DNA of 64,000 bases, taken from contig JABFVL010000008.1 of the NCBI GenBank assembly GCA_013362805.1, positions 18,465-82,464 of the forward strand, in the 5' to 3' direction. This DNA comes from Mycobacteriales bacterium (GTDB taxonomy: Bacteria > Actinomycetota > Actinomycetes > Mycobacteriales > QHCE01). A model generated the notes under the pieces. That model ran no database searches. It was not told where the DNA came from and worked only from the letters and a program-made list of their open reading frames with translations. This document shows positions 2,272 to 31,023 of this stretch, piece after piece. The position numbers and the translations under genes were made by a program. Position 1 is the first letter of the stretch, and the number at the start of each line of letters is the position of its first letter.

Positions 2272-2358
2272 GAGGCATAACTTACTGCTTACTGGGAGCC
2301 CGCCGACAAAGCGGGCAGGCCCTGGGCTGACGCGCGGGCATCCCCTAAAGTCACACAA

Positions 2359-3012: not shown

Positions 3013-5525
3013 GGACGCTCCAACTTGTAAACCGTCGCGTCTTTGTTCTGCAACACAATGGGCGCGAACTCCGCCAACCGCGGCGAAGCGTTATTCGGCA
3101 AGTCGCGGTTGAACGCGGGTCGGGTGTCCGCCACCAGATAGCGCACTCCGGCGTCATACAGCTTCCGCAAGCCCTCGGGCGTGGGGTTGCTGAACGCTTC
3201 ATCGTTGAGCTTGGTCCGCTCCGGGAACGGCGTTCCCATCGCGAAGTGCGACTTATCCATGTGTTCAAGCGCCATCGCTAGCGACTCATCGGTATAGGTC
3301 CACGTTTCCAAATACACCCGGCGCTCACTCAAACCGGAATAGTAGAAGACCCGAGTGTCTGTGCACACCTCGTCGCGCGCGTATTCAACCCCGTTCCAGC
3401 GCTGTATCTGACGCGAGACAAGTCGAGTGACCAAACAATGGTTGTTTACCGCGATGATCGTGTCTTGCGGTGTGTTGTCGCGCACCCAACGCAGTGCTTG
3501 CCGAAGTCCCGGGCTGGTGTCTTCCCGGCTCCGGGATGCGGCGTCATCACGTGCGATGATGCCGTCTTTGAACCAGGCGCGCGCGAACTGGACATTCGCC
3601 ATTGCTCCATCGGGCAGACATGCGACCACTAGAGCGATGATCGCCACTCCAGGAAGCACAGCCCGGCTGTTCTTCCAATATTTGCGGGCGAGCAGGTACG
3701 CGCCGATCGCGAAGGCGATGAAAAGTGCGTACCGCAACAGCACCCTGCCCTTTTGGGCGATCAACAGGTCTGGGTGGCTAGCCATCGCTGAGGCGACAAT
3801 GCCCAATGCGATTACTACTCCGGCGCCGATAGCGATTTTGAGCGCATTGCGCTTGGTAGCCACCTGGTCGATTATTCGGGCCAGACCCCAGCCGCCCAAG
3901 ATCGAAAGCGCCGGGAACGTCTGCACGAAGAACCAGTGCTGCGAGTTGTCGGGGTCGCGGAACATCGACAACGCGGCATAGCCCGATATGACCACGCCAA
4001 GCAGTAGCACCATGATCTCGCGGTGCCGCTTCACTCGGCGCAGTGATAGGGCACCGGCGTAGGGCGCGAGCATGACGAATAGCGCCAAGGGCACCGCGAC
4101 AACGGCGGCGGCCCAACCGAGGCCGGGATAGTTGTTGCCTGGGTCAGTCAGCCAGTCAACATTTTGAGCGATGGCCGCCATTTCCAAGCCGATGTGCGGA
4201 TCCACCAAGATTCGTTTGGTATCTGAGCCACCGTAGAGCAGCACTTGAGCGAGCCCAGCGGCCACTACCCCTATAACGCCGGCGGTGATCAAACCCGGAT
4301 CGATGCGTTTGAGGAAAGGTTGCGCCCGTCGGGACCACAGTTGGTACACGGCGGCGATGCAGATTCCTCCGACGATCACCGGGACGATGGTGGCTTTGGA
4401 CCCCACCGCACCGGCGCACAATATGGCAAATATCGCCCAACCCATCCACCAGCTCAGTCCCCGTTTTTCACTGGTGAGCTGGGCGACCAGTATCGCGAGC
4501 ATGGCGCTGAGCAGAACAACGCTGAACAGGAATGAGGGGCTGTAGCCGACATAGCGGCTCCAGCTGGTGAACGCCACTGGATATGGGTCGGCGGTCAGGT
4601 CAAGTTCACCGGCCACGGTGCCCAGCAATGTGGCCAGCACCGGCGCCCAAACCCGTTTGGTGAGCTGGGCGGTGGTGGCGGCGATGAGCGCGGGCACAAC
4701 GATCAGCATCGGCACGAGGAACAGGCGGCCAAGCACCCAGGTCAGGTCAATGCCGGTGATCTGGTGTGTGCTGGCGAAGTGCCCGTAGAGGAACCAGTGG
4801 TACTGCATGGGCAGTTCAGACACTGACGGATTCTCGGGTGGAACTTCACGCAAGGCATCGGCGGCCCACCCTAGGTGGTTCCACATGTCCACTGACCAGG
4901 ACGCATTGCCCTTGAGCGGCATGGGCACGGTGAGCCAGAACCGCCACATGGCAACCGAGGCCACTGTGGCGATGGCGGCACTGAGCGCCCAGGGGCGCCA
5001 GATCATCGCTTTGCGCGAAAGATAACGGCTCGGGCCGTGGCTGAAGTCGCCGGCGCGGGCTCGGTGGATGAGGGGCCAAGCGCACAACACCAACACGACA
5101 AGTGGGTAATAGCGGAGCAATTCCCGTTGGTCCATGGACGCCGTGAGCACCCAAAAGCCGAGCTCAAGAATATAGCCACAAGCGGCACCGACTGATGCGA
5201 TGAACAGTATTCCTCGACGAGGAACGATGCTGGCCACTAAGGCTATTCCGGGCAAAGCCACGAGCCCGATCCAGTACGCGGCGAACTTCGCGATGATGAC
5301 GGGCGGCGTGTTGGCGATCGCCAGGGCACCCGCGAAAAACGCGAACATGACGAGCACTGGTGGGATGACCGTCAGGGCGATAAAGCGCGCGCTGTACGGG
5401 TTCTTGCGGGATTCGTCCGGTTTTTGGGCAGGTCTCGCTGACTCAGAATCGGGCGTATCGGAGGCAAGCGTCGCTGAGGCCGGCATACAGCGCATGGTAT
5501 TTGCAACGCGCACCACAATCACCAT
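3009..5525 (-). CDS. large polytopic membrane protein, possible GT-C-type glycosyltransferase
   Basis: 838 aa with many hydrophobic segments over about the first 650 aa, then a soluble C-terminal domain of about 180 aa. The architecture resembles lipid-linked-sugar transferases. The function call rests on architecture only. Confidence 0.6.
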   Translation of the reverse strand: MVIVVRVANTMRCMPASATLASDTPDSESARPAQKPDESRKNPYSARFIALTVIPPVLVMFAFFAGALAIANTPPVIIAKFAAYWIGLVALPGIALVASIVPRRGILFIASVGAACGYILELGFWVLTASMDQRELLRYYPLVVLVLCAWPLIHRARAGDFSHGPSRYLSRKAMIWRPWALSAAIATVASVAMWRFWLTVPMPLKGNASWSVDMWNHLGWAADALREVPPENPSVSELPMQYHWFLYGHFASTHQITGIDLTWVLGRLFLVPMLIVVPALIAATTAQLTKRVWAPVLATLLGTVAGELDLTADPYPVAFTSWSRYVGYSPSFLFSVVLLSAMLAILVAQLTSEKRGLSWWMGWAIFAILCAGAVGSKATIVPVIVGGICIAAVYQLWSRRAQPFLKRIDPGLITAGVIGVVAAGLAQVLLYGGSDTKRILVDPHIGLEMAAIAQNVDWLTDPGNNYPGLGWAAAVVAVPLALFVMLAPYAGALSLRRVKRHREIMVLLLGVVISGYAALSMFRDPDNSQHWFFVQTFPALSILGGWGLARIIDQVATKRNALKIAIGAGVVIALGIVASAMASHPDLLIAQKGRVLLRYALFIAFAIGAYLLARKYWKNSRAVLPGVAIIALVVACLPDGAMANVQFARAWFKDGIIARDDAASRSREDTSPGLRQALRWVRDNTPQDTIIAVNNHCLVTRLVSRQIQRWNGVEYARDEVCTDTRVFYYSGLSERRVYLETWTYTDESLAMALEHMDKSHFAMGTPFPERTKLNDEAFSNPTPEGLRKLYDAGVRYLVADTRPAFNRDLPNNASPRLAEFAPIVLQNKDATVYKLERP

Positions 5526-5537
5526 GCGGGGGTCGTG

Positions 5538-8500
5538 TCACGGCAACAATGCGGCTAGTTGCTCAGAGTTAAGCAAATCTACGGGGCGGATCGTGCGTCC
5601 GTCGGCGACGTAGTGGAACGCCGCCCGCACCCGCGAAATTGGGGTGTTAGTCAGCTCTGCCCAAGCCAGCCGATAGGCAGCGAGCTGCACAGACTGTGAA
5701 CCCAATTGCGTTGGAGCACGTCCGGTTTTCCAGTCGACCACGTCCCACCCGGGGGCGCCGTCCACGGTGGCCCGGAAAACCGCATCCATTCGTCCCCGCA
5801 CCACCACTCCGTTAATAACAGTGGCGAAGGCCACTTCTACCTGATGTGGGGTCTTGTCAGCCCATTCCGATTCCAAGAACTTCGCTTGGAGTTCGGCGAG
5901 TTCTTGATCGTCGGCGGCATCAGAGTCACCCGCGCCGGGAAGTTCCCCAAAATCCAGGAGTTGTGTGGGGCTGAAACGACGTTCCAACCAACCGTGAAAC
6001 GCCGTTCCTCGACGCGCGTAGGGAGCGGGCCGCCGGGGCATGGGCCGACGCACCTGTTGGGCGAGCAGTTCCGGGTCTTGATGCAGAGCCACGAGGTTCG
6101 ACACGGTGAGGTGGGTGGGTAGTGGTACTTCAGTGGCCGTGTTCGGGCTGCGGCTGGCCCGTTCGGCGAGCAACAACCGGGCTTCGTGGCCCCAGCGTCG
6201 TTCTTGCTCGTCTGGATCGCCCTCGTTGGGGGTGTTCACCAAGGCGGCCGCGAGTTCCAACGGTTCTCGTCGCTCCCCCAAAGGGTCGTGTGGCCACAAC
6301 ACAGTGCGCGCATTAGTGAGCAGCGGGTTCTTCAGGTCTTCGTCGGGCTCGGGCGCCCACACGTGCGCTTGTTTATCGCAGTGCTCATATATTTCGGTGA
6401 GCAATGTCGATGGGCCGCGCCGGGTGGTGGCGCTGGCGCTCCACCAGTAGCCGGAACACAGGAGCACTCGCCGGGCCCGAGTGAGCGCGACATAAGCCAG
6501 TCGGCGTTCTTCGGCGAGTTCGTAATCCGCCCAGCGTCCTTCAAAGGCTTTGAGTTCTTTGCCTAGGCCGGGTTGATCTTCGATGGCGGTGAGGTTCAGA
6601 TCAGGTAGGTCGGCGTGGTCTCCGCGCAACGCGGCGGGCAGGGCCCCGAGGTTGTGCGTCCATCGGGCCGATTCTTGTTTTTTCGCCGGGAACACTCCCG
6701 ATGTCAAACCGGGAACGGCGACGATGTCCCACTCCAGTCCTTTGGAGCCGTGCACGGTAAGTAGCTGTACCGCGCCTTCGGTCACCTCGACTTGCCCGGC
6801 TTGTAGTCCACGTTCGGTGCGTTCAGCCGCTGCCAAATATGCGAGCAGCGCGGACAGTGTTGGATGTTCCGCCGCATTGTCGAAGTCGGCTACTACCTGC
6901 GCGAACGCATCGAGGTGCGCTCGAGCGGCAGCTGGTTCTCGTGGACGGCGCACCACTACTTCTATGTCGAGCCCGAGCACTCGTTCGGTCTCGGCGACAA
7001 GTTCGGGCAGCGGCTGCCCGGTTCGTCCGCGCAGGTAGCGAAGCTGGTCCGCCAACGCCCGCAGGCGGCGATACGCGGCCGGTGAATAGTCCGATGCGGG
7101 GCCTAGGTCGGCGAGTGCTTCGATGATGCTCGCTTCGCCGGAGTGTTCTTCGCCTACTAGTTCCAAAGAGCGTTTCTTAAGTGCGAGCAAATCGCGGGGG
7201 CCAATGCGCCATCTGGCACCTGTGAGCAGCCGCAGCAGATCCGCACCGGCGGTGGGATTACTGATAACGCGAAGGGTGGCGACAAGGTCGGTGATTTCTG
7301 CGGTGCTGAGTAGTCCAGCAACACCCACTATTTCTACGGGGAGTCCCCTGGCTCTAAGCGCTTCGGCGAGCGGTTCGAATTGTTGACGGTTACGAACGAG
7401 CACGGCAGTAGTCGGCGGTTCACTACTTTTTTCCCATTGGGTGGCGATGTTGTCGGCGATCCAGTGCGCTTCGTCGATCACGGTGTTGTGTAGGCCGCAC
7501 AGCAGTTCACCGCTTCCGGCGCCTGGCCGTGGCTCTAGTGGTGGCACCGTTACTCGTTCGTCAGCGCGCAGCGGCTCGGACAGCGTGTTTGCGGCTGCCA
7601 AAATTTGCGGTTCGTTGCGCCAGCTGATCGTCAATGGGTAAACGCGGGCGTTCTTGTTGTTGCGCTGTGGAAAGTCGGTGGGAAACCGCATGAGGTTGCC
7701 GGCGCTGGCGCCACGCCAGCCATAGATGGACTGGCAGGGGTCGCCGACAGCCATGACGGGATGCCCGCCGCCGAATAGTTCTTGCAGCAAAACTAGTTGC
7801 GCAAAACTGGTGTCTTGGTATTCATCGAGCAGCACGACTCGATATCGGGCCCGCTCGGTGGCTCCGATCTGTGTATGCGCTTGGGCGAGAGCCGCGGCCC
7901 GGGCTAGCTGGTCGCCGAAGTCCATGGCCTCGATGGCTTGTTTGCGCTGGTTGAACGCTTCGACCAGGGGCAACAATGAGAGTTTCGCTTTTTGGCGGGC
8001 GAGCAAGGTGCGAACAGCGGCTGGTGTTTTGCCGGGCAGGGCGGCGATGTCGGCGCAGAACCGTTCTAGGTATGCGGCCAAGTCCGCGGTGCTTTGCAAG
8101 TGTTCGGCGAGTTCACCGGCCAGGCCGCGCACTTTGTCGGTGACCGTGTCAGGGGCGGCGTCTACCGCGCTCATATCGCCGTCGTAGTGGTTGACGAGCA
8201 CGTCGGCGAATTGCCAGCACATCGCGTCGCCGAGCAGTTGGGCGGTGGGTTCGAAGCCGCCGCGCAGTGCGTGTTCGGACACGATCCGACCGGCGTAGGC
8301 GTGATATGTCGAGACCGTGGGTTCGCCGATGTCTTCACATAGTCCGTGGTGTCGAAGCTGGGCGAGTCTGGTCCGGATTCGGGCGGAAAGCTCACCGGCG
8401 GCTTTGCGGGTGAAGGTGAGGCCGAGGATGTGTTGGGCGGGCACCAGGCCATTGGCGACGAGGGCGACCACCCGGGCGGCCATCGTTTCGGTTTTCCCGC

Positions 8501-8624
8501 TCCCAGCGCCGGCGATAACTAGTGCGGGCGCAAGTGGGCTGGCGATAATCGCGGCTTGTTGTGGGGTGGGTGCGGGCCGCCGGAGGGTGTTCGCGATTTG
8601 TTCGGGGCTCAGGCGGAATTGCAT
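5538..8624 (-). CDS. adnB: ATP-dependent helicase-nuclease subunit AdnB-like (UvrD-type motor plus C-terminal RecB-type nuclease)
   Basis: 1028 aa. The N-terminus has PAPTPQQAAIIASPLAPALVIAGAGSGKTETMAARV (Walker A) and DEYQDT. The C-terminus has GRMDAVF...VVDWKTG...QLAAYRLAW, a PD-(D/E)XK nuclease signature. Confidence 0.85.
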   Translation of the reverse strand: MQFRLSPEQIANTLRRPAPTPQQAAIIASPLAPALVIAGAGSGKTETMAARVVALVANGLVPAQHILGLTFTRKAAGELSARIRTRLAQLRHHGLCEDIGEPTVSTYHAYAGRIVSEHALRGGFEPTAQLLGDAMCWQFADVLVNHYDGDMSAVDAAPDTVTDKVRGLAGELAEHLQSTADLAAYLERFCADIAALPGKTPAAVRTLLARQKAKLSLLPLVEAFNQRKQAIEAMDFGDQLARAAALAQAHTQIGATERARYRVVLLDEYQDTSFAQLVLLQELFGGGHPVMAVGDPCQSIYGWRGASAGNLMRFPTDFPQRNNKNARVYPLTISWRNEPQILAAANTLSEPLRADERVTVPPLEPRPGAGSGELLCGLHNTVIDEAHWIADNIATQWEKSSEPPTTAVLVRNRQQFEPLAEALRARGLPVEIVGVAGLLSTAEITDLVATLRVISNPTAGADLLRLLTGARWRIGPRDLLALKKRSLELVGEEHSGEASIIEALADLGPASDYSPAAYRRLRALADQLRYLRGRTGQPLPELVAETERVLGLDIEVVVRRPREPAAARAHLDAFAQVVADFDNAAEHPTLSALLAYLAAAERTERGLQAGQVEVTEGAVQLLTVHGSKGLEWDIVAVPGLTSGVFPAKKQESARWTHNLGALPAALRGDHADLPDLNLTAIEDQPGLGKELKAFEGRWADYELAEERRLAYVALTRARRVLLCSGYWWSASATTRRGPSTLLTEIYEHCDKQAHVWAPEPDEDLKNPLLTNARTVLWPHDPLGERREPLELAAALVNTPNEGDPDEQERRWGHEARLLLAERASRSPNTATEVPLPTHLTVSNLVALHQDPELLAQQVRRPMPRRPAPYARRGTAFHGWLERRFSPTQLLDFGELPGAGDSDAADDQELAELQAKFLESEWADKTPHQVEVAFATVINGVVVRGRMDAVFRATVDGAPGWDVVDWKTGRAPTQLGSQSVQLAAYRLAWAELTNTPISRVRAAFHYVADGRTIRPVDLLNSEQLAALLP

Positions 8625-19314: not shown

Positions 19315-20574
19315 ATGCTAAATGACGAGAGCTATGGCCTTCTATTACGACGCTCGCGGCATGCGCGAAAGATGTCCCAGGGTGCTCTAGCCGCAGCTGT
19401 TTTCACCGATAAAACTCACATCTCACACATCGAACGAGGTCGCAGTGATGGGTCAGCTGACCTTGCTGCTCGCTGCGATGACGCGCTCGCGGCCGAAGGT
19501 GCGCTGGTCACCGCGCATTCCGCGCGGATGGCGCAGCGAGATCGTGAGGGTCAGAAGGATGACATCATGCGCCGTCGCACCATGCTGCAAGCGATGTCAG
19601 CTCTGGCAATGGGAATCGGCTCTGGAGCTACCGGGTTGGAAGCACTACGCCAGGGCCTTTCCCTTGCAGTAGGCGCTGACCGCAATAGCAATGAATGGCT
19701 CCTCATCGCCCACGAATACGCATCCCGGTATTTCACCGTCCCGGCCCCGATTCTTCTCACCGAACTGTCCTCTGATCTGACGGTCCTTCAGCACCTTCTT
19801 TCCGCGGAAACATCGGATGCTGGGCGACGTGATCTTTCCTCAGCAGGGGGGCCAGCTCGCCGCTCTCATGGCGATGAGTCTGAACAACATGGGACAGGAC
19901 CAGTCGGCCTCGCGGTGGTGGCGATCGGCCCGCCACGCACTCGATGCCTCAGGCGATGAGGTTTTGCGGCTGTGGGTACGCGGTTGCGAGGCGACCTTCT
20001 ATTTTCGAGACCATCCTGGCTATGCCGAGCGCGTGATCTCAGAAGGCCTGACTGTGGGTAGCACTCCATGTCATGGCTACGCGGCGCTTTTGGCCATACG
20101 CGCACAACTGTCCGCCCAACAAGGAGATAGACAAACGGCGGTGACAACGCTGCGCACAGCGGAGAAGGTCACTGAGGCGATGCCCGCCGCTATCGCCGAT
20201 GATGCGGTGTCTTTGCACGGTTGGCCTGCTCTGCGGTTTCATCACACCGCCAGCCTGTGTATTCCTACCTGGGAATGACGCGTGAGGCATACCGAGTGCA
20301 AGACGAAGCGCTCGCCGCCTATCCCACGGAGCTGAGGGTAGAGCGCATCAAAGTCGAACTCCACCGTGCGTTGTGTCTCGTCCATGACGGCGATATCCAG
20401 GGCGCCATGGCGCAAGGACATGCCGCTCTCGATGCCCTCCCATCCCCGCCGGGTGCCTCGATCTCATCATTTGTCCATGACCTGATGGCAGCGGTGCCAC
20501 CGCTTGAGCGCACGCGCACAGATGCCGCCGAGTTGCAGGCGCGGCTGCTGTCTATAGGGCAATCTGGTCAATGA
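19315..20574 (+). pseudogene. XRE-family HTH regulator with helical-repeat C-terminal domain, disrupted by two frameshifts
   Basis: The HTH (MSQGALAAAVFTDKTHISHIERG) and N-terminal part are in frame 1. The conserved-looking middle (GQLAALMAMSLNNMGQDQSASRWWRSA...) is in frame 2. The C-terminal part (VYSYLGMTREAYRVQDEALAAYP...LHRALCLVHDGD) is back in frame 1. The first shift coincides with a G6 run at 19846-19851 and the second lies near 20250-20258. Confidence 0.7.
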
Positions 20575-21476: not shown

Positions 21477-22424
21477 CTACTGAACCAAAGTCTGCTTACC
21501 GGTCGCGCATATCCAGTTAGTGATCGCCTCGACGCGTTCTTGCGTCAGGGCGTGTGCACCGTCGTAACGCAGATGGGTCAGGTTCTCCCCAGCGTTTTGT
21601 GCCTCGTAGGTTGCTCGGGCGGCGTCCACAATGGCGGGCGCGTCGGCGGATGTGTCGTCCCCAGTGGCGGAAACGATGAGCATGGGGCGGGGCGCGGTGG
21701 CGCGCACAAGGTCGCCGATGTCGAATTCGCTGGCGAAACCTGGGATAACTTCTGCCATTTCGATGCCGGTTTCTTGCGCCATTTTTGTTGCATAGGTGCA
21801 GGCGGCGCCGCTGGAGGCGGCGAAGGCGATGCGTTGATCAATCGCGCTGTGGAACAGCACAGTGTTTCCGCCATAGGAATGACCGAATGTGCCGATGCGC
21901 GTGGAGTCAACGTGATCAAGCCGGTCGAGAAGTGTCACAGCCGCGCAGGCATCGGAGAGCACTTTGCGCATGAGGGTATCGCCCGTGACCAACCGGTATA
22001 CGAGTTCGTTGTAGTGCTGAAGCCAGTCGTCCGCGTGTGGCTCGCTGCCGCTGGTTTGGCGTCTGCGATCTTCAAAGCAAATGGAGTCGGGGCACAGCAC
22101 CACAAATCCCTCCCGGGCCAAACGCGGCCCGAACGCGTTTTGTTCATCGCCTAGAAGACCAGCTGTTTCGCTCTTGCCGAGGTGGCGTTCGCCATTGTGT
22201 TGATGTTGCAGCACGATCGCTGGGCATGATTCGTCGTCGACATTGGGCCGGAACAGATAGGCGGGAATCCGATCGCCCTCACCAGAATCGAAGGTGATCA
22301 GCTCGCGGCGGTAGTCGGCGAATTCTTTTACCGCGTGAGTCGTAAAGGTGCCGTCGGTGATAGGAATCGAAAGGTTGAGAAATGATGCGATATCGCGCGC
22401 GTTCATCGTCGAACTTCCTTCCAC
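21477..22424 (-). CDS. alpha/beta hydrolase (dienelactone-hydrolase / esterase-like)
   Basis: Has the nucleophile elbow GHSYGG and overall alpha/beta-hydrolase spacing. The start could also be MNARD at 22406. Confidence 0.8.
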   Translation of the reverse strand: MEGSSTMNARDIASFLNLSIPITDGTFTTHAVKEFADYRRELITFDSGEGDRIPAYLFRPNVDDESCPAIVLQHQHNGERHLGKSETAGLLGDEQNAFGPRLAREGFVVLCPDSICFEDRRRQTSGSEPHADDWLQHYNELVYRLVTGDTLMRKVLSDACAAVTLLDRLDHVDSTRIGTFGHSYGGNTVLFHSAIDQRIAFAASSGAACTYATKMAQETGIEMAEVIPGFASEFDIGDLVRATAPRPMLIVSATGDDTSADAPAIVDAARATYEAQNAGENLTHLRYDGAHALTQERVEAITNWICATGKQTLVQ

Positions 22425-22628
22425 ACCTTCGACGCGGTCACGCTTATTGTTTCACCCGCGCCGCATGCGGTGATTGAACGACCTGACGGTGGCGGACGGA
22501 CGCGGCCCAATGACGTACAAAGTAGAGTTCCCGCAGGTGAAAGGGCTACTCATACCCCATTGGGAGCTGCACAACCCCAAAGCTAGACAATGCTCACGGA
22601 AATAAGCACCGTCTAGGAGGGAAGAGGA

Positions 22629-22850
22629 ATGACAGAGCAAATAGCGGGCCCGAGGCAGCCTGGGCCAGCTAAGCCCGTAGACGAGCCCACTGCACGTCTG
22701 ATGGCACGACACTCAGACGACCTGCTGGAACGCGCACGAGCGGGTGCGATCGGCCCGTCCGTCGGAGCTCCCGGAGAAACCCCACCACCTACCGATTACC
22801 GGCAATTCATGGAGCCACAAACCGTGCAGGCACGGGTACCACGCCGATAA
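22629..22850 (+). CDS. small hypothetical protein
   Basis: 73 aa preceded by a strong Shine-Dalgarno (GGAGGGAAGAGGA-ATG). No motif recognised. Confidence 0.45.
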   Translation: MTEQIAGPRQPGPAKPVDEPTARLMARHSDDLLERARAGAIGPSVGAPGETPPPTDYRQFMEPQTVQARVPRR

Positions 22851-22873
22851 CCGCTAGATCCCCCTTGAGCTGC

Positions 22874-22914
22874 TTGGGGTGCACTGCGTGTACTCAAAAC
22901 CCAGTTCACCCCAA
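22874..22914. terminator. imperfect hairpin between convergent genes
   Basis: TTGGGGTGCAC...GTTCACCCCAA pairs at 10 of 11 positions with a 19-nt loop. Confidence 0.3.
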
Positions 22915-22954
22915 AGCCCAAACCCACGATGACGCGCACGCGCTGTCCGTTCAT

Positions 22955-25336
22955 TTAGGGACGCCTTCGCCCGGCGGATTTTGTAGCCGTCGTTGAATTG
23001 TTTGTGGCCGGTGGCTGCATCATCACGAGTGCTTGAGCACAGGCCTGGATGAAACCAGGGTCATACGCGTGACCGTGCTGCCGCTCCAAGCTCTTGAGGA
23101 TTTCCGGGGCGGCCCCGGCATATGCATGCAAATAGTCGATGCTTGCGCCCAGTTGCTGGGGATTGGCCGTCGCCGAGAACGCGACGCGCAGCGGATCTTC
23201 CTCATGCAAACGCACTACTTGATCACTTGGGTCTTGACCTTCCAATATCCCGAGCCGAGCGCCAACGAGTGTTGTCAGTGTCACGCGGGCAGTCTTACTC
23301 TGCTCACCTATCCTGATCCGCATCTTTTGTCGAGTGTTGTTGCGCGCTCCCCCAGTGTCCGCCGGGGTGGCGTCAATGATGCAGTCGTGGCCATCGCCCG
23401 TGACGCGGGCCTGTGCGTGCAAACTGGCATGAATGAGCTCATCAGCCCCTAGCTTGAGACCGGACACCCGCTCAACGTGCAGATGTGGCAGCAAATATTC
23501 AGTGGATGCTCGAATGAACTCGAAAGCCCCATCGCACTGAAAATTCAACACCCGATCGCGCACATAGCTGGAGAAATCTTTGAGGGTGAGTGCGCTGGAG
23601 TCCTTGGCGTGGCTGAGGTTCTGCAATGTGGTGTCGTACGTGTAGTTGGCAACCGCTTTGCCAGCCTGGACAAGGTCCGCTAGCGATGCTGGCGTCATGC
23701 CGGGATGCTGAAAAACCCGGCGAAAGTGTGCGCTGGCGCGCAATCCGATCGATTTATATTGTTCGACGAGTCCACTCAGGCGGGCCGTTGGAAGCAGCAG
23801 GCGGCGTGAGCCCTGATATGGGTCGATAGCAGTGCGTTGGAACGCCCACGTGTCTTCGGCGTGCGCGACCAGTTCGTAACCACCGATTTTTGGTCGATGC
23901 CCTTGATGCAGCCAACCCTCGGCCGAGTTCGGGAAATTCAATACCAAGTCGTATTCACCGGCTTCGATCGGCGCGGGCAGTTGCGAGCCTAGGTGTGGTT
24001 CTTGCTGGATGACACGAGTCACGCCATCCCATGCATCGCGGTGCGTGATGCTCCCGAGAATTATCTCTTTTTCTCTTTGCACTTCTTCCCATGAAGAGAT
24101 TGTGATTCTGCGATCGGGCTCCTCGCTCGTCTCTCTATAAGCTCTCAATGGGGTCTGGCTAGTGTCGAATATCTGACCTTGAGGTTGTTTGAGATGTAAA
24201 AGCATTGATGTGTTGCTGGTTTCAGCGAACGATTCGAACGTCAAAAAATGAGCGTTTCGCTCAATAGCCTGCTGCGCCGCTTCAACAAGACAAGATCGAG
24301 CATCAACACCATTGTTCAGATAAAAGAGCTTAATGAAATTCCTCGTCAAATCTCGAAACAAATGCTTCTCAAGACCCTGGGGTGCTATTTGCCGCAAAAG
24401 AGAATCACTCCAGCGATCCATCACGACATACGAGGGGACATCTACGCCGGAGACCCTTCTGATCATCAGCTCTGAAACATCAGCCGATGGTTGATAAATA
24501 TCGACAACGTCAACATGGTCGTCAGAGGATTTTCTACCGTGTTCGTTGATGCTAGCGAGAATCCAGTGATGTATACGTTCCCGTTGATTGCCCGAGGTTC
24601 GAGTCTGCGTCGTTTCGCGGTCAATGGCGGCGTGGATCCGATCTCGCTCAACGCGCAGGGCATGATGACTCGTTCTATCGATAGCCCGATCGACTGGAAT
24701 CCGATTGCGTATTTTAAGGGCGCTATCTTCGTTCGCTTTTCGACTAAAAATTTTCAGTTGATCAAGTGGTGCTTCACGAACATCGTTTGTGGAGTCTATA
24801 AGTGCACTTAAAAATTGATATTGGGGCGATTCGTAAACTATTCGCGAGACAGCCGACTTAATAGCTCCTTGTCGTGCCGCTACGAGAGAATCACGCTGGT
24901 CAGATATTACTTGCGACCGCTCTGAAAAATAGTCTGCTGTCTCATCCGATGACTCTACAAAAGTGTTATTGAAGAAAACTCCATCGCGTGCTCGTTGCAG
25001 ATAAAGCGTAGAGGGCACCGACTCACCCGACTGCGCGAAGTACATAAATCTGAGCTCATCAACATTCGCACGGAAAACTTCTCTGTCATCAGGATCCGCG
25101 ATTGCCGCAAGCTCGCTTCGTGCCCATTCTTCATACTCCCGGCGGAATTCATCTTCACCGACGAGAGAGAGCGCATCCAGCAATTGTTGCTCTGCTTCAG
25201 AGAGTGGGCGTAACACATACATCCATCGATTATCTCGCAGCTTCGGTGGGACAACCGTCAACCGAGTGGCGGATTCGACGCGCATACCCAGGTAGCCACG
25301 GCTAGCGCGGCCACTTTCATCGTTCGGGTTGACCAA
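22955..25336 (-). CDS. large cytoplasmic protein with C-terminal transglutaminase-like (papain-fold) Cys-His-Asp core
   Basis: 793 aa with a TTG start. The C-terminal region NFQCDGAFEFIRA...DELIHASLHAQARVTGDGHDCIIDATP fits the TGase-like C...H...D pattern (Cys codon 23534-23536, His 23429-23431, Asp 23372-23374). The N-terminal 550 aa or so have no motif I recognise. No signal peptide or TM segment is evident. The gene is AT-rich relative to its flanks. Confidence 0.75.
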   Translation of the reverse strand: MVNPNDESGRASRGYLGMRVESATRLTVVPPKLRDNRWMYVLRPLSEAEQQLLDALSLVGEDEFRREYEEWARSELAAIADPDDREVFRANVDELRFMYFAQSGESVPSTLYLQRARDGVFFNNTFVESSDETADYFSERSQVISDQRDSLVAARQGAIKSAVSRIVYESPQYQFLSALIDSTNDVREAPLDQLKIFSRKANEDSALKIRNRIPVDRAIDRTSHHALRVERDRIHAAIDRETTQTRTSGNQRERIHHWILASINEHGRKSSDDHVDVVDIYQPSADVSELMIRRVSGVDVPSYVVMDRWSDSLLRQIAPQGLEKHLFRDLTRNFIKLFYLNNGVDARSCLVEAAQQAIERNAHFLTFESFAETSNTSMLLHLKQPQGQIFDTSQTPLRAYRETSEEPDRRITISSWEEVQREKEIILGSITHRDAWDGVTRVIQQEPHLGSQLPAPIEAGEYDLVLNFPNSAEGWLHQGHRPKIGGYELVAHAEDTWAFQRTAIDPYQGSRRLLLPTARLSGLVEQYKSIGLRASAHFRRVFQHPGMTPASLADLVQAGKAVANYTYDTTLQNLSHAKDSSALTLKDFSSYVRDRVLNFQCDGAFEFIRASTEYLLPHLHVERVSGLKLGADELIHASLHAQARVTGDGHDCIIDATPADTGGARNNTRQKMRIRIGEQSKTARVTLTTLVGARLGILEGQDPSDQVVRLHEEDPLRVAFSATANPQQLGASIDYLHAYAGAAPEILKSLERQHGHAYDPGFIQACAQALVMMQPPATNNSTTATKSAGRRRP

Positions 25337-25401
25337 GCCACTAAACTAATCTCGTTCACCTAGAGCGAAAATGCGGCTCGGCATCACGTCCTGGAGATCC
25401 G

Positions 25402-26691
25402 GTGGAGTTTCGAGAACGCAACCCAGAAAATGTCGCCCGCGACGAAGCCGCCGCAGAAATGCTTGCCAGATTGCAGGCGATGGAAAATCGCGGCGAGATG
25501 GGCACCGCTGAATGGCGCCAACTCCGCGAAGAAGTCATCGACCACAGCCGCGGCTTCGCAATGTGGCTAGTGGAACATCGGATCATCGCACCGGAACTGA
25601 GCAGACAGTCCAATCAATACCATCAAGAAAGAAAAGACTTTAGGCAAGCTGCGGAACTTGGCGTGCTTGTCGCCATTGGTAATTTCATTTCTCCAGACCG
25701 CCGCGGGGATGAACCATTTTCTCGGTATCTCTCTAATGCGATTCTTGAGGAAGCCAGAGGCTTTCGGAAAGAAGTGTGGGACAAGAATATTCCCGAAGGC
25801 GGACAAGAAGCGGCAAAACATGTACGTCGAGCAATCTATCCATTAGTCAGAGAAAAAGGGGGAACAATAACGCTTGACGAATTGGTGGAAAAGCTTCGCC
25901 AACGCGACTCCTCATGGCACGCCGACAAGGTAAAAGAAATCTTGGGCTGGCTCCCCGAGCACTATTCCCAACAAGTTGTCCGTGAACGAGTGAATAGCAC
26001 CAGCTCGCGGGACAGATTTGGCACATTGAGAAACCACCGAGGCGGAATCTCATCACGTGACCAAGCAGCTGTGATGAAGTGGCTGGCCACACTTTCCGAA
26101 CGTGATAAAGCGATACTCATGCTTCGCTTCCAAGAACCGGGCGAGGGGCGACAGGCGCAAGTCGCAAGAATCGCGGACACCTATGACCTCAGACCCCTAG
26201 GAGTTGAAAGGATCGCGGGTCGACTACTTCGCGAACTTCAAGAGGCTCATCCAGAAATTGAAGTACGCGGTCTGCGGCCTCGCAAAGAATCTCGGCAAGC
26301 AACAGCCGCGGTGGCAGCCGCAGCTGAGAGACTAGACCAACCGGCGACCCGGCTCGAAGAACAAGAACCTGAGCTTGCCGAGTCAAAGCACGAAACAACA
26401 CCGCACGAACCGAGCTTGGAAACCGAAGACACACGAGGAAAAACAGAGAGCTTGCCCCCCGAGGCGAGAACGGAAACAACCCCCGTCGTATCGCTTCAAG
26501 ACTTTCCCCCTCCGCCCCGCTTCCCGCCTCGGCCTGCTATGCCCCCACCCCCACCAACCGATGCACCTCTTCATGTGGTGGCGCCGCTCACCGCGCGAAC
26601 CATTCCGCAAGATCAGCTGCTCTCAGGCTCAAGGTTCCAGAAAGCCATGCGGAGGATCCTGTTTTGGAAAAATCGATCGCCCCGTCGCTAA
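25402..26691 (+). CDS. divergent sigma-70-family protein with acidic/proline-rich C-terminal extension
   Basis: Region-2-like: DFRQAAELGVLVAIGNFISPDRRGDEPFSRYLSNAILEEARGF. Region-4-like HTH: LSERDKAILMLRFQEPGEGRQAQVARIADTYDLRPLGVERIAGRLLRELQ. The tail carries PPPPRFPPRPAMPPPPP. GTG start. Confidence 0.65.
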   Translation: MEFRERNPENVARDEAAAEMLARLQAMENRGEMGTAEWRQLREEVIDHSRGFAMWLVEHRIIAPELSRQSNQYHQERKDFRQAAELGVLVAIGNFISPDRRGDEPFSRYLSNAILEEARGFRKEVWDKNIPEGGQEAAKHVRRAIYPLVREKGGTITLDELVEKLRQRDSSWHADKVKEILGWLPEHYSQQVVRERVNSTSSRDRFGTLRNHRGGISSRDQAAVMKWLATLSERDKAILMLRFQEPGEGRQAQVARIADTYDLRPLGVERIAGRLLRELQEAHPEIEVRGLRPRKESRQATAAVAAAAERLDQPATRLEEQEPELAESKHETTPHEPSLETEDTRGKTESLPPEARTETTPVVSLQDFPPPPRFPPRPAMPPPPPTDAPLHVVAPLTARTIPQDQLLSGSRFQKAMRRILFWKNRSPRR

Positions 26692-26802
26692 AAGCGCGCT
26701 TGGCCTAACCCCAAAAAGAAGGCATTACACCCCCACAAGCCAAACCCGCTTACGGCTCTCGTTAGCTCGCACGCGGATGCCAGGAGCTCATAACATCGCT
26801 AT

Positions 26803-27222
26803 ATGACAAACGATGCTGTTTCTTCCGTGTGGCCAATCCTGCACTACGACGACACTCATAGTGCGCTGAGCTATTTCGTGAACGTGCTCGGCTTCCAACA
26901 AATAATCGCAGCCGAAGACGAACATGGTGATATAGGTCATGCCGAGCTAGCCTGGCCCGGTGGCGGCAGATTTGTCTTCGGCTCGACCAAGCACACCGAA
27001 TCCATTCATGGGCACATGCGTCCTGGAAATAACGCCATGTACGTCATCACCGACGACGTTGATTCTGTGTATCAACGAGTACTTGAATATAAAGGCGAAA
27101 TTGTGCATGCGCCTCGAGAAACCCAGTTCGGCTCTGGCGCCCAGGCCTATACGTTCACTACCCGTGACCCCGAAGGCAACCTATGGACCTTCGGCATGCC
27201 GCTAGATTCACGCAGCTCATGA
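26803..27222 (+). CDS. VOC-family (glyoxalase/bleomycin-resistance fold) protein
   Basis: 139 aa. ALSYFVNVLGF...GHAELAWPGG...YVITDDVDSVYQRV...RDPEGNLWTFG is typical of the VOC fold. Confidence 0.8.
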   Translation: MTNDAVSSVWPILHYDDTHSALSYFVNVLGFQQIIAAEDEHGDIGHAELAWPGGGRFVFGSTKHTESIHGHMRPGNNAMYVITDDVDSVYQRVLEYKGEIVHAPRETQFGSGAQAYTFTTRDPEGNLWTFGMPLDSRSS

Positions 27223-27227
27223 TCTTC

Positions 27228-27833
27228 TCAGCGATCTAGGCGACCACGGTAGGTGTGCACAGCGGCAATGAGTGCTTCTTGTTGGCCATACAGTTGCCCG
27301 GTAAGCGGGGTCCACCAATGGGAACCATCCTTGGCCACGACCCCATCCAGCTTATCGGGCTTAATGTCACCTATCTGAGTATTGAATTCCTCCACGGCGT
27401 GATCCTTGTGCTTTCGCCAGTGAGGCAACACAGTCGCCAGTAGTGGCGATGCCCCTTTCGCGGCCCACGCACTCAACACATGGCTACCCGGCGAGCGCCC
27501 TAGGTCTCTGGCAGCGGCTGTTAGTTCACGCCGTGATGGCCTTGACCAATAAGCGAGTGCCCACGATGCGGCAAGAGCCTCTTGGCGTATGTGAGCGTTG
27601 TCTTTCTCAAACTGAACTAAAACCGGATCTGTCAACTCGATGAAATGATCGTCCTCCACGACAGACCCGTTGATGACGCCTTGCACCTCGGAAAGGTCTA
27701 AATCAATCATGCTCGCATTGCCGAGCACAGCATCTGTTGCGGGCTTGAAAGGCGAACCGTCGATCATGTTAGGGAAAAGTCCGCTCCCGCATTTGTCCGA
27801 GTAACGCGCAATTCTTCGCTCAAACCGTCCCAT
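27228..27833 (-). CDS. hypothetical protein
   Basis: 201-aa ORF starting 40 nt downstream of the adnA stop on the same strand. No motif recognised. Confidence 0.5.
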   Translation of the reverse strand: MGRFERRIARYSDKCGSGLFPNMIDGSPFKPATDAVLGNASMIDLDLSEVQGVINGSVVEDDHFIELTDPVLVQFEKDNAHIRQEALAASWALAYWSRPSRRELTAAARDLGRSPGSHVLSAWAAKGASPLLATVLPHWRKHKDHAVEEFNTQIGDIKPDKLDGVVAKDGSHWWTPLTGQLYGQQEALIAAVHTYRGRLDR

Positions 27834-27873: not shown

Positions 27874-30800
27874 TCATTCAGTGACCTGCGCCGAATGCAA
27901 GGGACAACAGGGTCGCAATGTGCAACCGCGGCACACAGCGGCCTCATCTCGAGCCAAAAACTCGGCAGCGGCCATGCCCACAGCAGCCTCGTCAGCCAAA
28001 TGCAGTGCCCACGTCGGATCATCAGCCGAAGCCAAGGGAGGCTGATCGCGACTCGCGGCCGCTTTCTCTGTTCCACCCAACGACACAAGCCCGGCGCCCG
28101 CCGAATGGGTTCCCGCGTCGATAAACGCACCCGCCTCGACCGCTAGCTGATACATGCCCAACTGGGGATGCTGTTGAGTTTTATCTTTCGAGGGTGTGCT
28201 TTTGCCAGTCTTAAAATCGAAAATTGTTACCCGGCCAGCCTCATCAACCTCCAAACGGTCAACCCGACCAGACAGCAAAGCATGCTCGCCCACTTCAGCA
28301 CTGAAGGCTTCTTCCACCTTCACTTTCGCGGGCGCCCGACTATTCAACCACTCCGCGAGCTTGCCAACCATGCGATGCGCGCGATCCGTGTTGCGAGCCC
28401 GTACCCAGCCCGAACCCAACTGGACCTGCGCCAACAACGAATCCAGCCGCTGGCCCATCGCCGCCACGTTGACCGGCCCAGGCGCGCCGAACTCAGCCGC
28501 CACCTCGTGCACCGCAAGACCCACGCCTTGCTCCCCGCTCGGCGGGCCATCACCACCGGCCTTTCGCAAAAACCACTTGAGGCCGCATTGCGAAAACGAC
28601 TCCACGCTGGACGGTGAAACCCGCGTGCGCTGCCCCGGCACGCCCAAGGGACGCGGATCAGAGACATCCGGCAAGCCGTACCACTGCTGCGGGTCCGCGC
28701 CGAACACTCCGGCCCGCGCCAACGAGGCCAACTGTCGCGCCGCGCCGTCCGCTTCATCGCCCCCAGCGATAACAGCGGTGCGAAGCTCAGCCACCAAACC
28801 CGACAAAGTCAAAGAACGCGGAACCTTGGTCAGCGGGCGTGGATCCTCGTCAATCAAAGGCAACAACTCATCGAGAAAACGAGATGGTTCTTCGTCTTCA
28901 CTCTCAACCGCCGTCACCACCAACGCGGATCGCGCTCGCGAGGCCGCCACGTAAAACAGACGACGCTCCTCATCCAGCAACGCGGTCAGCCGGCCGCTCG
29001 GCTCCAAGGGGCGTTGCGCCGCCAAGTCCACGATGTCTTCGGAACCCAAAATGCTGCCACGCAACCGAAGATCGGGCCACACTCCTTCATTCACACCCGC
29101 GATGAAAACCCGGTCCCACTGCCGACCCTTAGCCGAATGCGCGGTGAGCAGCTCCACCGCGTCAGCCTTACGAGCGGTCGGGGCCAATGAATCGCCAGGA
29201 AGCACATGGCCTCGAACATGGTCCAAGAACAACAGGGCACCAGCCGCTGGCATCCGATCGGTGAAACGCGCCGCCGCCTCAAACAACGCCACCACCGCGT
29301 CAAGATCTCGGTCGGCCGCCGAACCCGTGGCTCCCCCGCCCGCTGCCGCTCGCTGCCACTGTTCAGCCAACCCGGTGGCTTGCCACAAAGCCCACAACAC
29401 TTGTTCCGCTGTGCCACCGGCTGCCTCTCTAGCCGCCCGCAACACATTCGCGACCCGATACGCCGGTTCTGACCAGTGCTTATCCACCGCCGCCAACTCA
29501 GCGGGGTCCAACAAAGCCTGGGCAAGCAATACATCAGGGGGAGCTGGCTGCTCGGCGCGCTGCGCCAAGTCACGAAGCTCGTGGCGGAGTCGACGCAGCA
29601 ACAGCGAATCGGCTCCGCCGATGGGCGACATCAACAGTGCCAGCGCGGCATCGGGGTCCAAAGTCTCCGGTTGCAAAGCGCACCGCAAGGCCAACATCAG
29701 TGTGCGCACCGCTGGTTGTTCCAGTAGCGGAACCTCATCACCATCGACAAACGCCGGCACCCCAGCCAGAGCCAACCCTCGGCGCAATGCCGCGAGTTGT
29801 CGGGCTCCAGCGCGCACGATGACCGCCATATCACGGTATGGGACATTTTCGAGCAGGTGCGCGTGACGCAAACGGTAAGCGATATATGCCGCCTGTTGCG
29901 CCTCCGTGGCCAAAGTGTGGACTTCAGCCGAACCCGAAACCTCCGCTAGCGGACGCAGCGCCGGGGTCACCGGCCCGCGAATCCGATCCGACACGCCCGC
30001 GATGGGGTTCAACAAACCAGCGTGCATACGCCAACTCGCGGCCAACTCCACAGTAGGTGCCGGCTCACCGGTCACCTGAGCGAACGTGTCCGGGAATCGA
30101 TGCAACGCGCCAGCATCAGTTCCCCGGAAGGCGAAAATAGACTGTTGCGCATCGCCGAACGCCACCACAAAACGGCCGCCCTGACACAACAGCCGCAAAA
30201 GCTCTTCTTGACCTGGGTCAATGTCTTGATACTCATCAACGAACACGTATTCGCATCGTGTTCGTTCAGCGGCCAACAACTCGGGATCATGACGCAACGC
30301 GGCAGTGGCAGCGCGAATCAATTCGGCCGGGTCATATGCGGGCCCGCCACCTTGACTGGCGGCCCGAGCGGCGTCGCGCAACTCGGTGACGTCGGCGTAT
30401 TGCTGCATGAACCGAGCCGCGGCCCGCCAGTCGTCACGTTGATGCTCAATGCTCCAGTGCTCGAATTGCACTGGATCTATACCGCGTTCGTAGCATCGCA
30501 GCAGCAAATCGCGCAATTCGGCAGCGAAACCACGCGTGCCCAACACCTGCAAATATCGTTCAGGCCACGTCACTCCGATGCCCGCCGCATCCCCGGCGAG
30601 TAGATCGCGAATCATCAAGTCTTGTTCCGGACCCGACAGCAAACGTGGTGCCGCCCATCCGTTGGAAGCCGCGACCCGCCGCAACACCCCAAAAGCGTAT
30701 GAGTGGAAAGTGCGAGCCAATGGCTCCACAGTGGTGCGAGCCATCCGGGTGACGATGCGTTCCCGCAACTGCGATGCGGCTCTGCGCCCAAATGTCAGGA

Positions 30801-31023
30801 TGAGCATGCGGCTCGGATCAGCTCCGGCCGCGATGCGTTGGGCGACCGCTTCGACGAGCACCGAAGTTTTTCCCGTTCCTGGACCACCAATGACCCGAAG
30901 TGGCCCACGCTCATGCGCTGTCACTATTCGTTGTGCGTCGTCAGGTTCAAATTTCGTGTGCCGCGGCTGAACCCTAGTCAGTTGATAGCGCGGTTCAGTA
31001 GCAGAGCTCACGGCCGCCATCAC
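27874..31023 (-). CDS. adnA: ATP-dependent helicase-nuclease subunit AdnA-like (UvrD-type motor, RecB-type nuclease with 4-Cys motif)
   Basis: 1049 aa with LRVIGGPGTGKTSVLVEAV, VDEYQDIDPGQ, a C-terminal GRVDRLE...FDFKTG nuclease core, and Cys pattern SQCGLKW...CRGCTLRPC (C-Xn-C-X2-C-X5-C). Confidence 0.85.
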   Translation of the reverse strand: MMAAVSSATEPRYQLTRVQPRHTKFEPDDAQRIVTAHERGPLRVIGGPGTGKTSVLVEAVAQRIAAGADPSRMLILTFGRRAASQLRERIVTRMARTTVEPLARTFHSYAFGVLRRVAASNGWAAPRLLSGPEQDLMIRDLLAGDAAGIGVTWPERYLQVLGTRGFAAELRDLLLRCYERGIDPVQFEHWSIEHQRDDWRAAARFMQQYADVTELRDAARAASQGGGPAYDPAELIRAATAALRHDPELLAAERTRCEYVFVDEYQDIDPGQEELLRLLCQGGRFVVAFGDAQQSIFAFRGTDAGALHRFPDTFAQVTGEPAPTVELAASWRMHAGLLNPIAGVSDRIRGPVTPALRPLAEVSGSAEVHTLATEAQQAAYIAYRLRHAHLLENVPYRDMAVIVRAGARQLAALRRGLALAGVPAFVDGDEVPLLEQPAVRTLMLALRCALQPETLDPDAALALLMSPIGGADSLLLRRLRHELRDLAQRAEQPAPPDVLLAQALLDPAELAAVDKHWSEPAYRVANVLRAAREAAGGTAEQVLWALWQATGLAEQWQRAAAGGGATGSAADRDLDAVVALFEAAARFTDRMPAAGALLFLDHVRGHVLPGDSLAPTARKADAVELLTAHSAKGRQWDRVFIAGVNEGVWPDLRLRGSILGSEDIVDLAAQRPLEPSGRLTALLDEERRLFYVAASRARSALVVTAVESEDEEPSRFLDELLPLIDEDPRPLTKVPRSLTLSGLVAELRTAVIAGGDEADGAARQLASLARAGVFGADPQQWYGLPDVSDPRPLGVPGQRTRVSPSSVESFSQCGLKWFLRKAGGDGPPSGEQGVGLAVHEVAAEFGAPGPVNVAAMGQRLDSLLAQVQLGSGWVRARNTDRAHRMVGKLAEWLNSRAPAKVKVEEAFSAEVGEHALLSGRVDRLEVDEAGRVTIFDFKTGKSTPSKDKTQQHPQLGMYQLAVEAGAFIDAGTHSAGAGLVSLGGTEKAAASRDQPPLASADDPTWALHLADEAAVGMAAAEFLARDEAAVCRGCTLRPCCPLHSAQVTE

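Follow-up and report, generated by a model that had tools for sequence, protein, structure and literature searches.

The described systems that come closest to the locus considered here are the group 3 sigma factors of the SigB/SigF/SigG type, the arylamine N-acetyltransferases (NATs; PF00797), three-domain enzymes of ~280 amino acids (aa) that transfer acetyl groups from acetyl-CoA and are represented by S. typhimurium 1E2T, E. coli NhoA and Nocardia 3D9W, and the transglutaminase (TGase)-like core superfamily (PF01841), in which a Cys at the N-terminus of a helix is accompanied by His and Asp on adjacent strands. A transglutaminase, EsrD, is also part of the recently described actinobacterial Esr/Esx anti-epibiont pathway; it has been proposed to attach EsrA, a secreted protein, by a covalent bond to a component of the cell surface, and its gene cluster also encodes Ser/Thr kinases and a protein with Ig repeats (PMC13622651). 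Here we analyse a divergent pair of genes in a 64-kb stretch of a Corynebacteriales metagenome-assembled genome (MAG; contig JABFVL010000008.1); this whole stretch is referred to as the window, and all coordinates are window coordinates unless a locus is named. One gene (25402..26691, + strand) specifies a 429-aa sigma-like protein, and the other (22955..25336, − strand) specifies a 793-aa protein with a Cys-His-Asp core. The original prediction for this pair was that a dedicated sigma factor and its partner enzyme had been acquired as a unit. The explanation we favour, to which we assign a probability of about 0.6, is that these are two real accessory genes, lying in an atypical ~5-kb patch of an actinobacterial chromosome, that do not constitute a conserved functional module; the figure covers the identities we give to the two genes as well as an origin by import.

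The 793-aa protein has no match in Pfam, NCBIfam, PADLOC or PHROGs, and it was a singleton in a word-indexed search, which returned the query alone when it was repeated with the family alignment. By exhaustive HMMER search we found that 87 further clusters (50% identity) have a representative scoring E ≤ 1e-3 and that 45 of these reach E ≤ 1e-10, which, counting the query, gives 88 and 46 clusters, respectively. Members of this family are mostly ~800 aa in length and are 24–30% identical to the 793-aa protein over approximately residues 42–667; its identity to any known member is no more than 24–33%. No match was found in Pfam for any of the 40 members tested, or in NCBIfam and PADLOC for any of the 12 tested, and sequence and profile searches of the PDB with the 793-aa protein and its family yielded designed helical repeats only, which are spurious matches. 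All 84 family members of at least 700 aa lack a transmembrane (TM)-like segment, and we take the family, the 793-aa protein included, to be cytoplasmic, as had been proposed for the latter. The ~800-residue Cys-His-Asp family is thus undescribed, is covered by no curated model, and represents a new architecture inside a known superfamily, with ~540 residues before the catalytic core and ~130 after it. It comprises at least 88 clusters of large, cytoplasmic NAT/TGase-like thiol enzymes.

The neighbourhoods of the family genes give no sign that the sigma-like gene accompanies the enzyme gene. We examined 17 places in which homologues of the 793-aa protein are encoded (L001; L002+L003; L004; L005+L006; L007–L013; L014+L015; L016; L017; L022; L023; and the P0036 contig, where L-numbers are loci carrying family genes and P-numbers are cluster members of the ~800-aa family), 16 of them with DNA and the P0036 contig by gene list alone. 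A phmmer --max search for relatives of the 429-aa protein in all open reading frames (ORFs) of the 16 contexts with DNA found none (best E 0.33), no Sigma70 Pfam domain is present in the precomputed gene lists of the homologue contexts, that of the P0036 contig included, and all-against-all BLAST of the neighbouring genes revealed none that is shared with the window and none that is conserved beyond the syntenic loci L009, L010 and L012. At L014, which carries the nearest relative, the 223-aa product of the divergent upstream gene was considered as a counterpart of the sigma-like protein and proved to be unrelated to it. Co-occurrence was therefore seen in 0 of 17 homologue contexts, the outcome that had been named beforehand as refuting the idea, and no neighbour is shared. 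Acquisition of sigma factor and enzyme as a unit finds no support; the pair does not constitute a conserved module, and its adjacency is specific to this genome. Nothing in the analysis shows either protein acting on the other, and in the literature searched we found no link between sigma factors and divergently transcribed TGase-like genes. That the sigma-plus-enzyme system is not upheld removes a false lead.

The layout that had invited this idea is exactly as originally described. The two ORFs diverge from a 65-bp spacer (25337..25401), the GTG start codon of the 429-aa gene at 25402 being preceded at 6 nt by GGAG, a plausible Shine-Dalgarno sequence, and the TTG start codon of the 793-aa gene at 25336 having no Shine-Dalgarno sequence. 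An alternative start for the latter gene is an ATG at codon 18, use of which would lengthen the spacer to 116 bp, and the length of the spacer therefore hangs on the choice of start. The neighbours likewise bear out the earlier statement that no anti-sigma factor, TM partner or mobility gene is evident: TM-like segments are absent from the 429-aa protein, the 793-aa protein and the products of the neighbouring ORFs; no anti-sigma, integrase or transposase domain was found among the neighbouring genes; and no HATPase_c domain (as in anti-sigma kinases of the RsbW/SpoIIAB type) or STAS domain is encoded between 16.7 and 33.2 kb. A dedicated two-gene module, acquired together, in which the enzyme gene is transcribed under the sigma factor, or else the sigma factor (or a regulator of it) is modified or cleaved by the enzyme, would suit the divergent orientation and short spacer, the depressed GC content at third codon positions (GC3) of both genes (0.52 and 0.54), the need for some other control of the sigma factor that arises when no anti-sigma gene is nearby, and the long, presumably disordered tail of the sigma-like protein as a possible substrate. 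We consider such a module quite improbable, given that there is no co-occurrence in the 17 contexts, two high-GC actinobacterial-type ones among them, that a sigma factor without any relatives leaves no conserved pair possible in current data, and that the SigB/F-type promoter motif GTTT-N13-18-GGGTA is absent from the whole window. A search of 22300–27300, spacer included, gave no match to a sigma-70-type promoter either.

The catalytic domain of the 793-aa protein was delimited by alignment blocks, a structural model and hhalign to residues ~545–660 (23357..23704, − strand). In an alignment of 40 family sequences the invariant columns are P108, G486, D505, Y565, Q600, C601, G626, H640, D655 and T657, among which Cys601 (codon TGC, 23534..23536, − strand), the predicted nucleophile, His640 (23417..23419, − strand) and Asp655 (23372..23374, − strand) form a candidate triad with spacings of 39 and 15 residues. 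The C-terminal Cys-His-Asp core that had been recognised from the single protein, and the very Cys codon that had been singled out, are thus conserved throughout the alignment. The motifs of the core are, in order, SDYTFD, GRLQVQCTGAAxFL, HAQ and YILDATP. AlphaFold2 with the family alignment produced a model of the 793-aa protein with a predicted local distance difference test (pLDDT) score of 80.5 and a predicted template modelling (pTM) score of 0.59, with pLDDT ~90 in the catalytic region (prediction from the single sequence reached a pLDDT of 34 and was unusable). In this model C601 opens a helix (601–615) that is followed by a strand (620–629), H640 lies on a strand (639–647), and D655 lies just past another (650–654); the papain/transglutaminase/NAT core has this topology, with its Cys at the N-terminus of a helix and its His and Asp on strands next to each other.

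Within that superfamily, the NATs provide the best, though weak, alignment. The triad spacing of 39 and 15 residues compares with 38 and 15 in NhoA, and in an hhalign comparison of the family with a 5-sequence NAT alignment, built from E. coli NhoA and PDB alignments, the two were collinear over 133 columns (P 0.003, probability 10.8%). In the extended alignment C601, H640 and D655 fall on NAT C69, H107 and D122, and the preceding helical segment, with its aromatic-F-D/E motif, also aligns, SDYTFD falling on the NAT motif IPFEN. Against NhoA as a single sequence the comparison was not significant, with His and Asp in register. PF00797 matched one of eight isolated domains, at E 0.048 and 13.9 bits against a gathering threshold of 22.8, in an alignment that starts exactly at the Cys; and when the full model was searched with Foldseek, nothing in PDB or BFVD reached E ≤ 1e-3, the top probability among the 50 PDB matches listed being that of the Nocardia NAT 3d9w_A (0.41). 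The family differs from NATs in giving no significant score (best P 0.003, E 0.048, probability 0.41), in having QVQC where NATs have RGGYC, and in that the core (~545–660) is embedded in an ~800-aa multidomain protein, whereas NATs are three-domain enzymes of ~280 aa. The resemblance to the TGase-like core superfamily, which had been put forward as a TGase/papain-like assignment, holds at the level of superfamily topology, in which the Cys opens a helix and adjacent strands supply the His and the Asp, but not at that of the profile: Transglut_core (PF01841) matches neither the 793-aa protein, nor the 40 members, nor eight isolated domains including the family consensus (E ≤ 10), and hhalign against the single sequence of E. 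coli YchA, annotated as transglutaminase-like, returned nothing. The Gln that precedes the Cys (QC) is reminiscent of the animal TGase active-site signature GQCW, and the HAx...D-x-T pattern is similar as well; we treat this as a lead and not as a test. In our view the core belongs to the NAT/TGase/papain superfamily as an acyl-enzyme domain with a Cys-His-Asp triad, and is nearest to the NAT branch, to which three weak pointers (hhalign, PF00797 and Foldseek) lead independently; the assignment is well supported by conservation and topology and weakly by statistics.

On this basis the 793-aa protein would be a multidomain cytoplasmic enzyme of a family that is diverse mainly in Ca. Saccharimonadales/Patescibacteria. 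Cys601, activated by His640 and Asp655, would most likely form a covalent acyl-thioester, from which the acyl group would pass to an amine, as it does in NATs and TGases, or to water, and the substrate would presumably be chosen by the ~540 N-terminal residues together with the C-terminal helical bundle.

The sigma-like protein is of a different character, in that homologues of its core are well known and close relatives of the whole protein are not found. Its best NCBIfam match is to the SigB/F/G model TIGR02980 (E 2.5e-12, 47 bits), and the alignment is collinear, with residues 66–282 matching profile positions 19–225 of 227; it also matches SigF NF005514 (E 2.9e-6) and the general sigma-70/ECF superfamily model TIGR02937 (E 4.6e-5), and six NCBIfam sigma models in all align on residues 62–282, which define a sigma-homologous core spanning regions 2 to 4 (25585..26247, + strand). 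A region-4-like helix-turn-helix (HTH) at residues 227–261 (26080..26184, + strand) is matched by Pfam Sigma70_r4 (PF04545; E 0.0026), at 17.7 bits, under its 24.1 cut-off, and Sigma70_r2 (PF04542) does not match the protein at E ≤ 1; by eye, the region-2 block DFRQAAELGVLVAIGNF..PFSRYLSNAILEEARGFRKE resembles the SigB/F/G consensus. All of the NCBIfam sigma scores are far below curated cut-offs, that of TIGR02980 (47 vs 234.35 bits) being one fifth of what is called for. The collinear, full-length NCBIfam matches establish homology to group 3 sigma factors but not membership of a curated family, and judging from these profiles the 429-aa protein is a divergent sigma-70-family (group-3-like) protein; the earlier description of it as a very divergent sigma-70 protein thus stands on the NCBIfam evidence, Pfam leaving region 2 unmatched and region 4 sub-threshold. 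Unlike SigB, SigF and SigG, the protein extends beyond the sigma homology by 60 residues at the N-terminus and 140 at the C-terminus, the latter forming a tail (residues 290–429; 26269..26688, + strand) that is rich in Pro (17%), Arg (11%), Ala (11%) and Glu (10%) and is covered by no Pfam or NCBIfam profile. Also unlike those factors, its gene has no adjacent RsbW/SpoIIAB-type anti-sigma or STAS partner, and the protein has no close relative in the databases searched: a word-indexed search of 5.8 billion proteins left it a singleton, tblastn found no match in plasmid records, phage records or IMG/VR, and a PDB sequence search returned no sigma factor.

We regard the sigma-like protein as an extreme orphan of a known kind, one that shows the extent of divergence possible for group 3 sigma factors in poorly sampled Actinobacteria. 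It is probably a fast-evolved, lineage-restricted sigma factor of the SigB/F/G type, with regions 2 to 4 at residues ~62–282 followed by a disordered Pro-rich tail, that would presumably bind the RNA polymerase core and direct it to a small private regulon. A score of 47 bits against a 234-bit cut-off, an undetected Sigma70_r2, a sub-threshold region 4, the absence of any PDB sigma sequence match and extensions of 60 and 140 residues would also be expected of a decayed or repurposed sigma-derived HTH protein (a transcription regulator or pseudo-sigma) that is no working sigma factor. We consider this unlikely, since the homology runs collinearly through almost all of the SigB/F/G model (19–225 of 227) and belongs to an intact ORF that a plausible Shine-Dalgarno sequence precedes.

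Both genes lie in DNA that differs in composition from its surroundings. The window is actinobacterial in character to judge by what it encodes, namely hisD, Mrp, an HtrA of mycobacterial type and a pair of UvrD-type helicases, of which at least one has a PD-(D/E)XK nuclease domain. Its lowest-GC 1-kb block is 24001–25000, with a GC content of 0.475 (window mean 0.588, standard deviation 0.028), and the hand counts reported previously for two segments within that block (29/60 at 24241–24300 and 21/60 at 24301–24360) are exact. The AT-rich islet that had been described is real in that the GC minimum of the window falls here, but it is limited to ~24000..26100 (GC 0.45–0.52), that is, to the 5′ halves of the two genes; the 3′ third of the enzyme gene, where the catalytic core is encoded, is at backbone GC (0.56–0.60). 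GC3 is low in four consecutive genes spanning 22955–27833: the 793-aa gene (0.54), the sigma-like gene (0.52), a glyoxalase/VOC gene (26803–27222, + strand; Pfam Glyoxalase E 4.2e-8; 0.56) and an unannotated 201-aa ORF that has no Pfam match (27228–27833, − strand; 0.57). Backbone genes of the window have a GC3 of 0.65–0.74, and the depression in four genes marks out an atypical patch from ~22.9 to ~27.8 kb (~4.9 kb), to which the glyoxalase/VOC gene and the 201-aa ORF probably belong along with the divergent pair. We found nothing convincing in the way of island marks at the locus, whether direct or inverted repeats on its flanks, tRNA genes or genes for mobility, and an Rfam scan of 18–32 kb gave no match. 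The ratio GARP/FYMINK, as a proxy for genome GC, spans 1.2–3.9 within the window and varies too much between protein families to be informative.

Composition also varies along the 793-aa gene. The N-terminal half of the protein (aa 1–420; GC3 0.35–0.58 per 60-codon block) scores best against the low-GC members P0007 and P0004, and the C-terminal half (GC3 0.53–0.68) scores best against the high-GC member P0005. The score differences are small, and they offer a weak hint that the gene is mosaic in origin.

The enzyme family is found chiefly in Saccharibacteria. A genome scan of GTDB, made with a 12-member subfamily alignment (the 40-sequence version being too degenerate) and giving a taxon list biased to that subfamily, identified seven loci, six of them in Ca. 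Saccharibacteria/Saccharimonadales MAGs and one in an unclassified "bacterium". The source-named cluster members come from Ca. Saccharimonadales (P0013 and P0029), the "Patescibacteria group" (P0067) and a "bacterium" (P0023), and the remaining one, P0006, comes from another contig of the very MAG that contains the window. Contigs that carry a family gene reach 0.4–1.2 Mb, and the GC content of the carrying loci is 46–55%, that of Saccharibacteria-type loci being 46–50%. In three syntenic Saccharibacteria genomes (L009:10490–12707, L010 and L012) the family gene lies directly upstream of rplU (L21)-like and parA-parB-like ORFs, as judged by their N-termini, a position more in keeping with an origin-proximal gene of the core chromosome than with an island. 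The family gene is preceded, shortly upstream and on its own strand, by a NUDIX hydrolase gene in two low-GC loci that are independent of each other (L002:7164–7577/L003:354–767 and L004:7485–7934); a 99-aa gene intervenes in L002/L003, no other locus shows this arrangement, and the two NUDIX proteins did not cluster by BLAST at E 1e-6.

A smaller number of family genes reside in high-GC DNA. L016 is on a contig of 63.7% GC, where the family gene (2136–4655) is accompanied, in order, by an 818-aa ORF, ruvX, mltG, aroE and an A24 peptidase gene; the 818-aa ORF is unannotated and is presumably alaS by its position, and the gene order is the actinobacterial one. L017 is on a contig of 61.5% GC, where the family gene (325–2757) adjoins a long AdoHcyase gene. 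Both genes are AT-shifted, with a GC3 of 0.61–0.65 compared to 0.69–0.84 in their neighbours, and that of L017 shows a dip in GC3 at codons ~100–400, like the window gene. At the low-GC locus L014 (taxon unassigned) the GC3 of the family gene matches that of its neighbours. The family gene is therefore AT-shifted relative to its neighbours in three high-GC contexts (the window, L016 and L017), which suggests import. In a neighbour-joining (NJ) tree, the 793-aa protein grouped with P0007, from a contig of 51% GC, in 72 of 100 bootstrap replicates and with its in-MAG paralog P0006 in 0 of 100; the four high-GC copies were monophyletic in 2 of 100, and deep nodes were below 30%. P0006 (HOQ05_13990; NUS74489.1) is an 864-aa second member of the family, encoded on another 52-kb contig of the MAG, whose nearest relative in the NJ tree is the Ca. 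Saccharimonadales protein P0013 (49/100), and it represents either a second transfer or a co-binned contig of an epibiont. Cultured Saccharibacteria are restricted to actinobacterial hosts, and the host lysed by one strain, Ca. Mycosynbacter amalyticus JR1, is Gordonia, which belongs to the Mycobacteriales (PMC11659515). Given that host range, repeated import from epibiont-type donors is the most economical reading, with the direction inferred, and for the copy in the window the most likely source is a donor of lower GC belonging to the Saccharibacteria type, whose lineage lives on the surface of Actinobacteria. An origin from phage or plasmid is not supported: neither protein was matched in viral-contig scans, and the sigma-like protein is absent from phage and plasmid records.

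Two other accounts of the distribution have to be set against import. Horizontal gene gain is documented for Saccharibacteria (PMC7427843; PMC8764695), and the family might accordingly have been actinobacterial from the start and have passed from hosts to Saccharibacteria, with the local AT-richness of the window gene reflecting weak selection or low expression; the four copies in high-GC contexts, which do not form one clade, would agree with this. Ancestry of this kind strikes us as distinctly unlikely, for the named members outside this MAG are all Patescibacteria, the composition of the gene fits its surroundings in the low-GC locus L014 and stands out in the high-GC loci, and copies in high-GC DNA are few in number and dispersed over the 88 clusters. 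An artefact of assembly or binning, in which Saccharibacterial DNA was misjoined into an actinobacterial contig while epibiont and host coverage co-varied, could produce a stretch whose GC (0.45–0.50) equals that of Saccharibacteria-type loci (0.46–0.50), would suit a family centred in Saccharimonadales, and might be suspected in a MAG whose second copy, P0006, is NJ-closest to a Saccharimonadales protein. It is nevertheless extremely unlikely: the low-GC stretch starts and ends inside two intact ORFs that run into backbone GC with no frame breaks, the sigma-like gene is present in no Saccharibacteria locus examined, two other high-GC contigs show the same relative AT shift (with the dip again at codons 100–400 in L017), and the 793-aa protein is merely 24–33% identical to any known member.

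A bolder version of import is that the Cys-His-Asp family is a core Saccharibacteria enzyme that has been captured repeatedly by Actinobacteria of the host lineages and has here come under a private new sigma factor to form a lineage-specific anti-epibiont module, the adjacency then being no accident. The captured copy might be a decoy or belong to an induced response, or it might be a counter-enzyme directed at an acyl or amine metabolite of epibiont origin. EsrD offers a parallel, being a TGase-superfamily enzyme of Actinobacteria in a setting of conflict between Saccharibacteria and host. Unlike EsrD, however, the 793-aa protein is predicted to be cytoplasmic, with no signal or TM segment, and no genes of an EsrD-type cluster are found here; the two are different proteins in different gene clusters. 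In the literature searched we found no link between Saccharibacteria and NAT-like enzymes. We consider an anti-epibiont module very unlikely.

Returning to the explanation we favour, in which two accessory genes share an atypical patch in this one genome, several points weigh against it. The low scores and the lack of a Pfam region 2 mean that the 429-aa protein may have lost its sigma function. The fold assignment of the enzyme is made up of motif, triad, topology and three weak statistics, and no profile or fold search was significant by usual standards. For the direction of transfer we rely on composition and on an NJ tree of poor resolution, taxon names cover a minority of family members, and a synteny check of the insertion found just helicase homologues of 26–30% identity and no close MAG relative. 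Finally, the four genes of the patch share a low GC3, and both genes of the pair may have been acquired together in this one genome.

Most genes of Saccharibacteria episymbionts have no known function, and genetic tools are now available for these organisms. Against this background the family offers a tractable target, since the enzyme is conserved and its nucleophile (Cys601) can be predicted. The sporadic AT-shifted copies in high-GC genomes of actinobacterial type are a candidate trace of gene flow from epibionts to host lineages, and family genes in high-GC hosts could serve as markers from which host–symbiont pairs are inferred.

Elsewhere in the window, 19315–20574 (+ strand) contains three overlapping ORFs in frames 1, 2 and 1 (19315–19959, with an HTH_31 match; 19817–20278; and 20221–20574) that resemble a single ~420-aa XRE-type regulator interrupted by two frameshifts, either a pseudogene or a sequence error in the MAG. 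A 73-aa ORF (22629–22850, + strand) with a strong Shine-Dalgarno sequence (GGAGGGAAGAGGAATG) is convergent with the 793-aa gene and sits in a 530-bp stretch that is otherwise non-coding in appearance. The two large UvrD-type helicase genes (5538–8624 and 27874–31023, both − strand) are 19 kb apart and not adjacent. The first matches the PcrA, UvrD, AddA and RecB models of NCBIfam, in each case below cut-off; the second, which carries the PD-(D/E)XK nuclease domain (Pfam), is just 26–30% identical to its best metagenome relatives, indicating that the lineage is poorly sampled.

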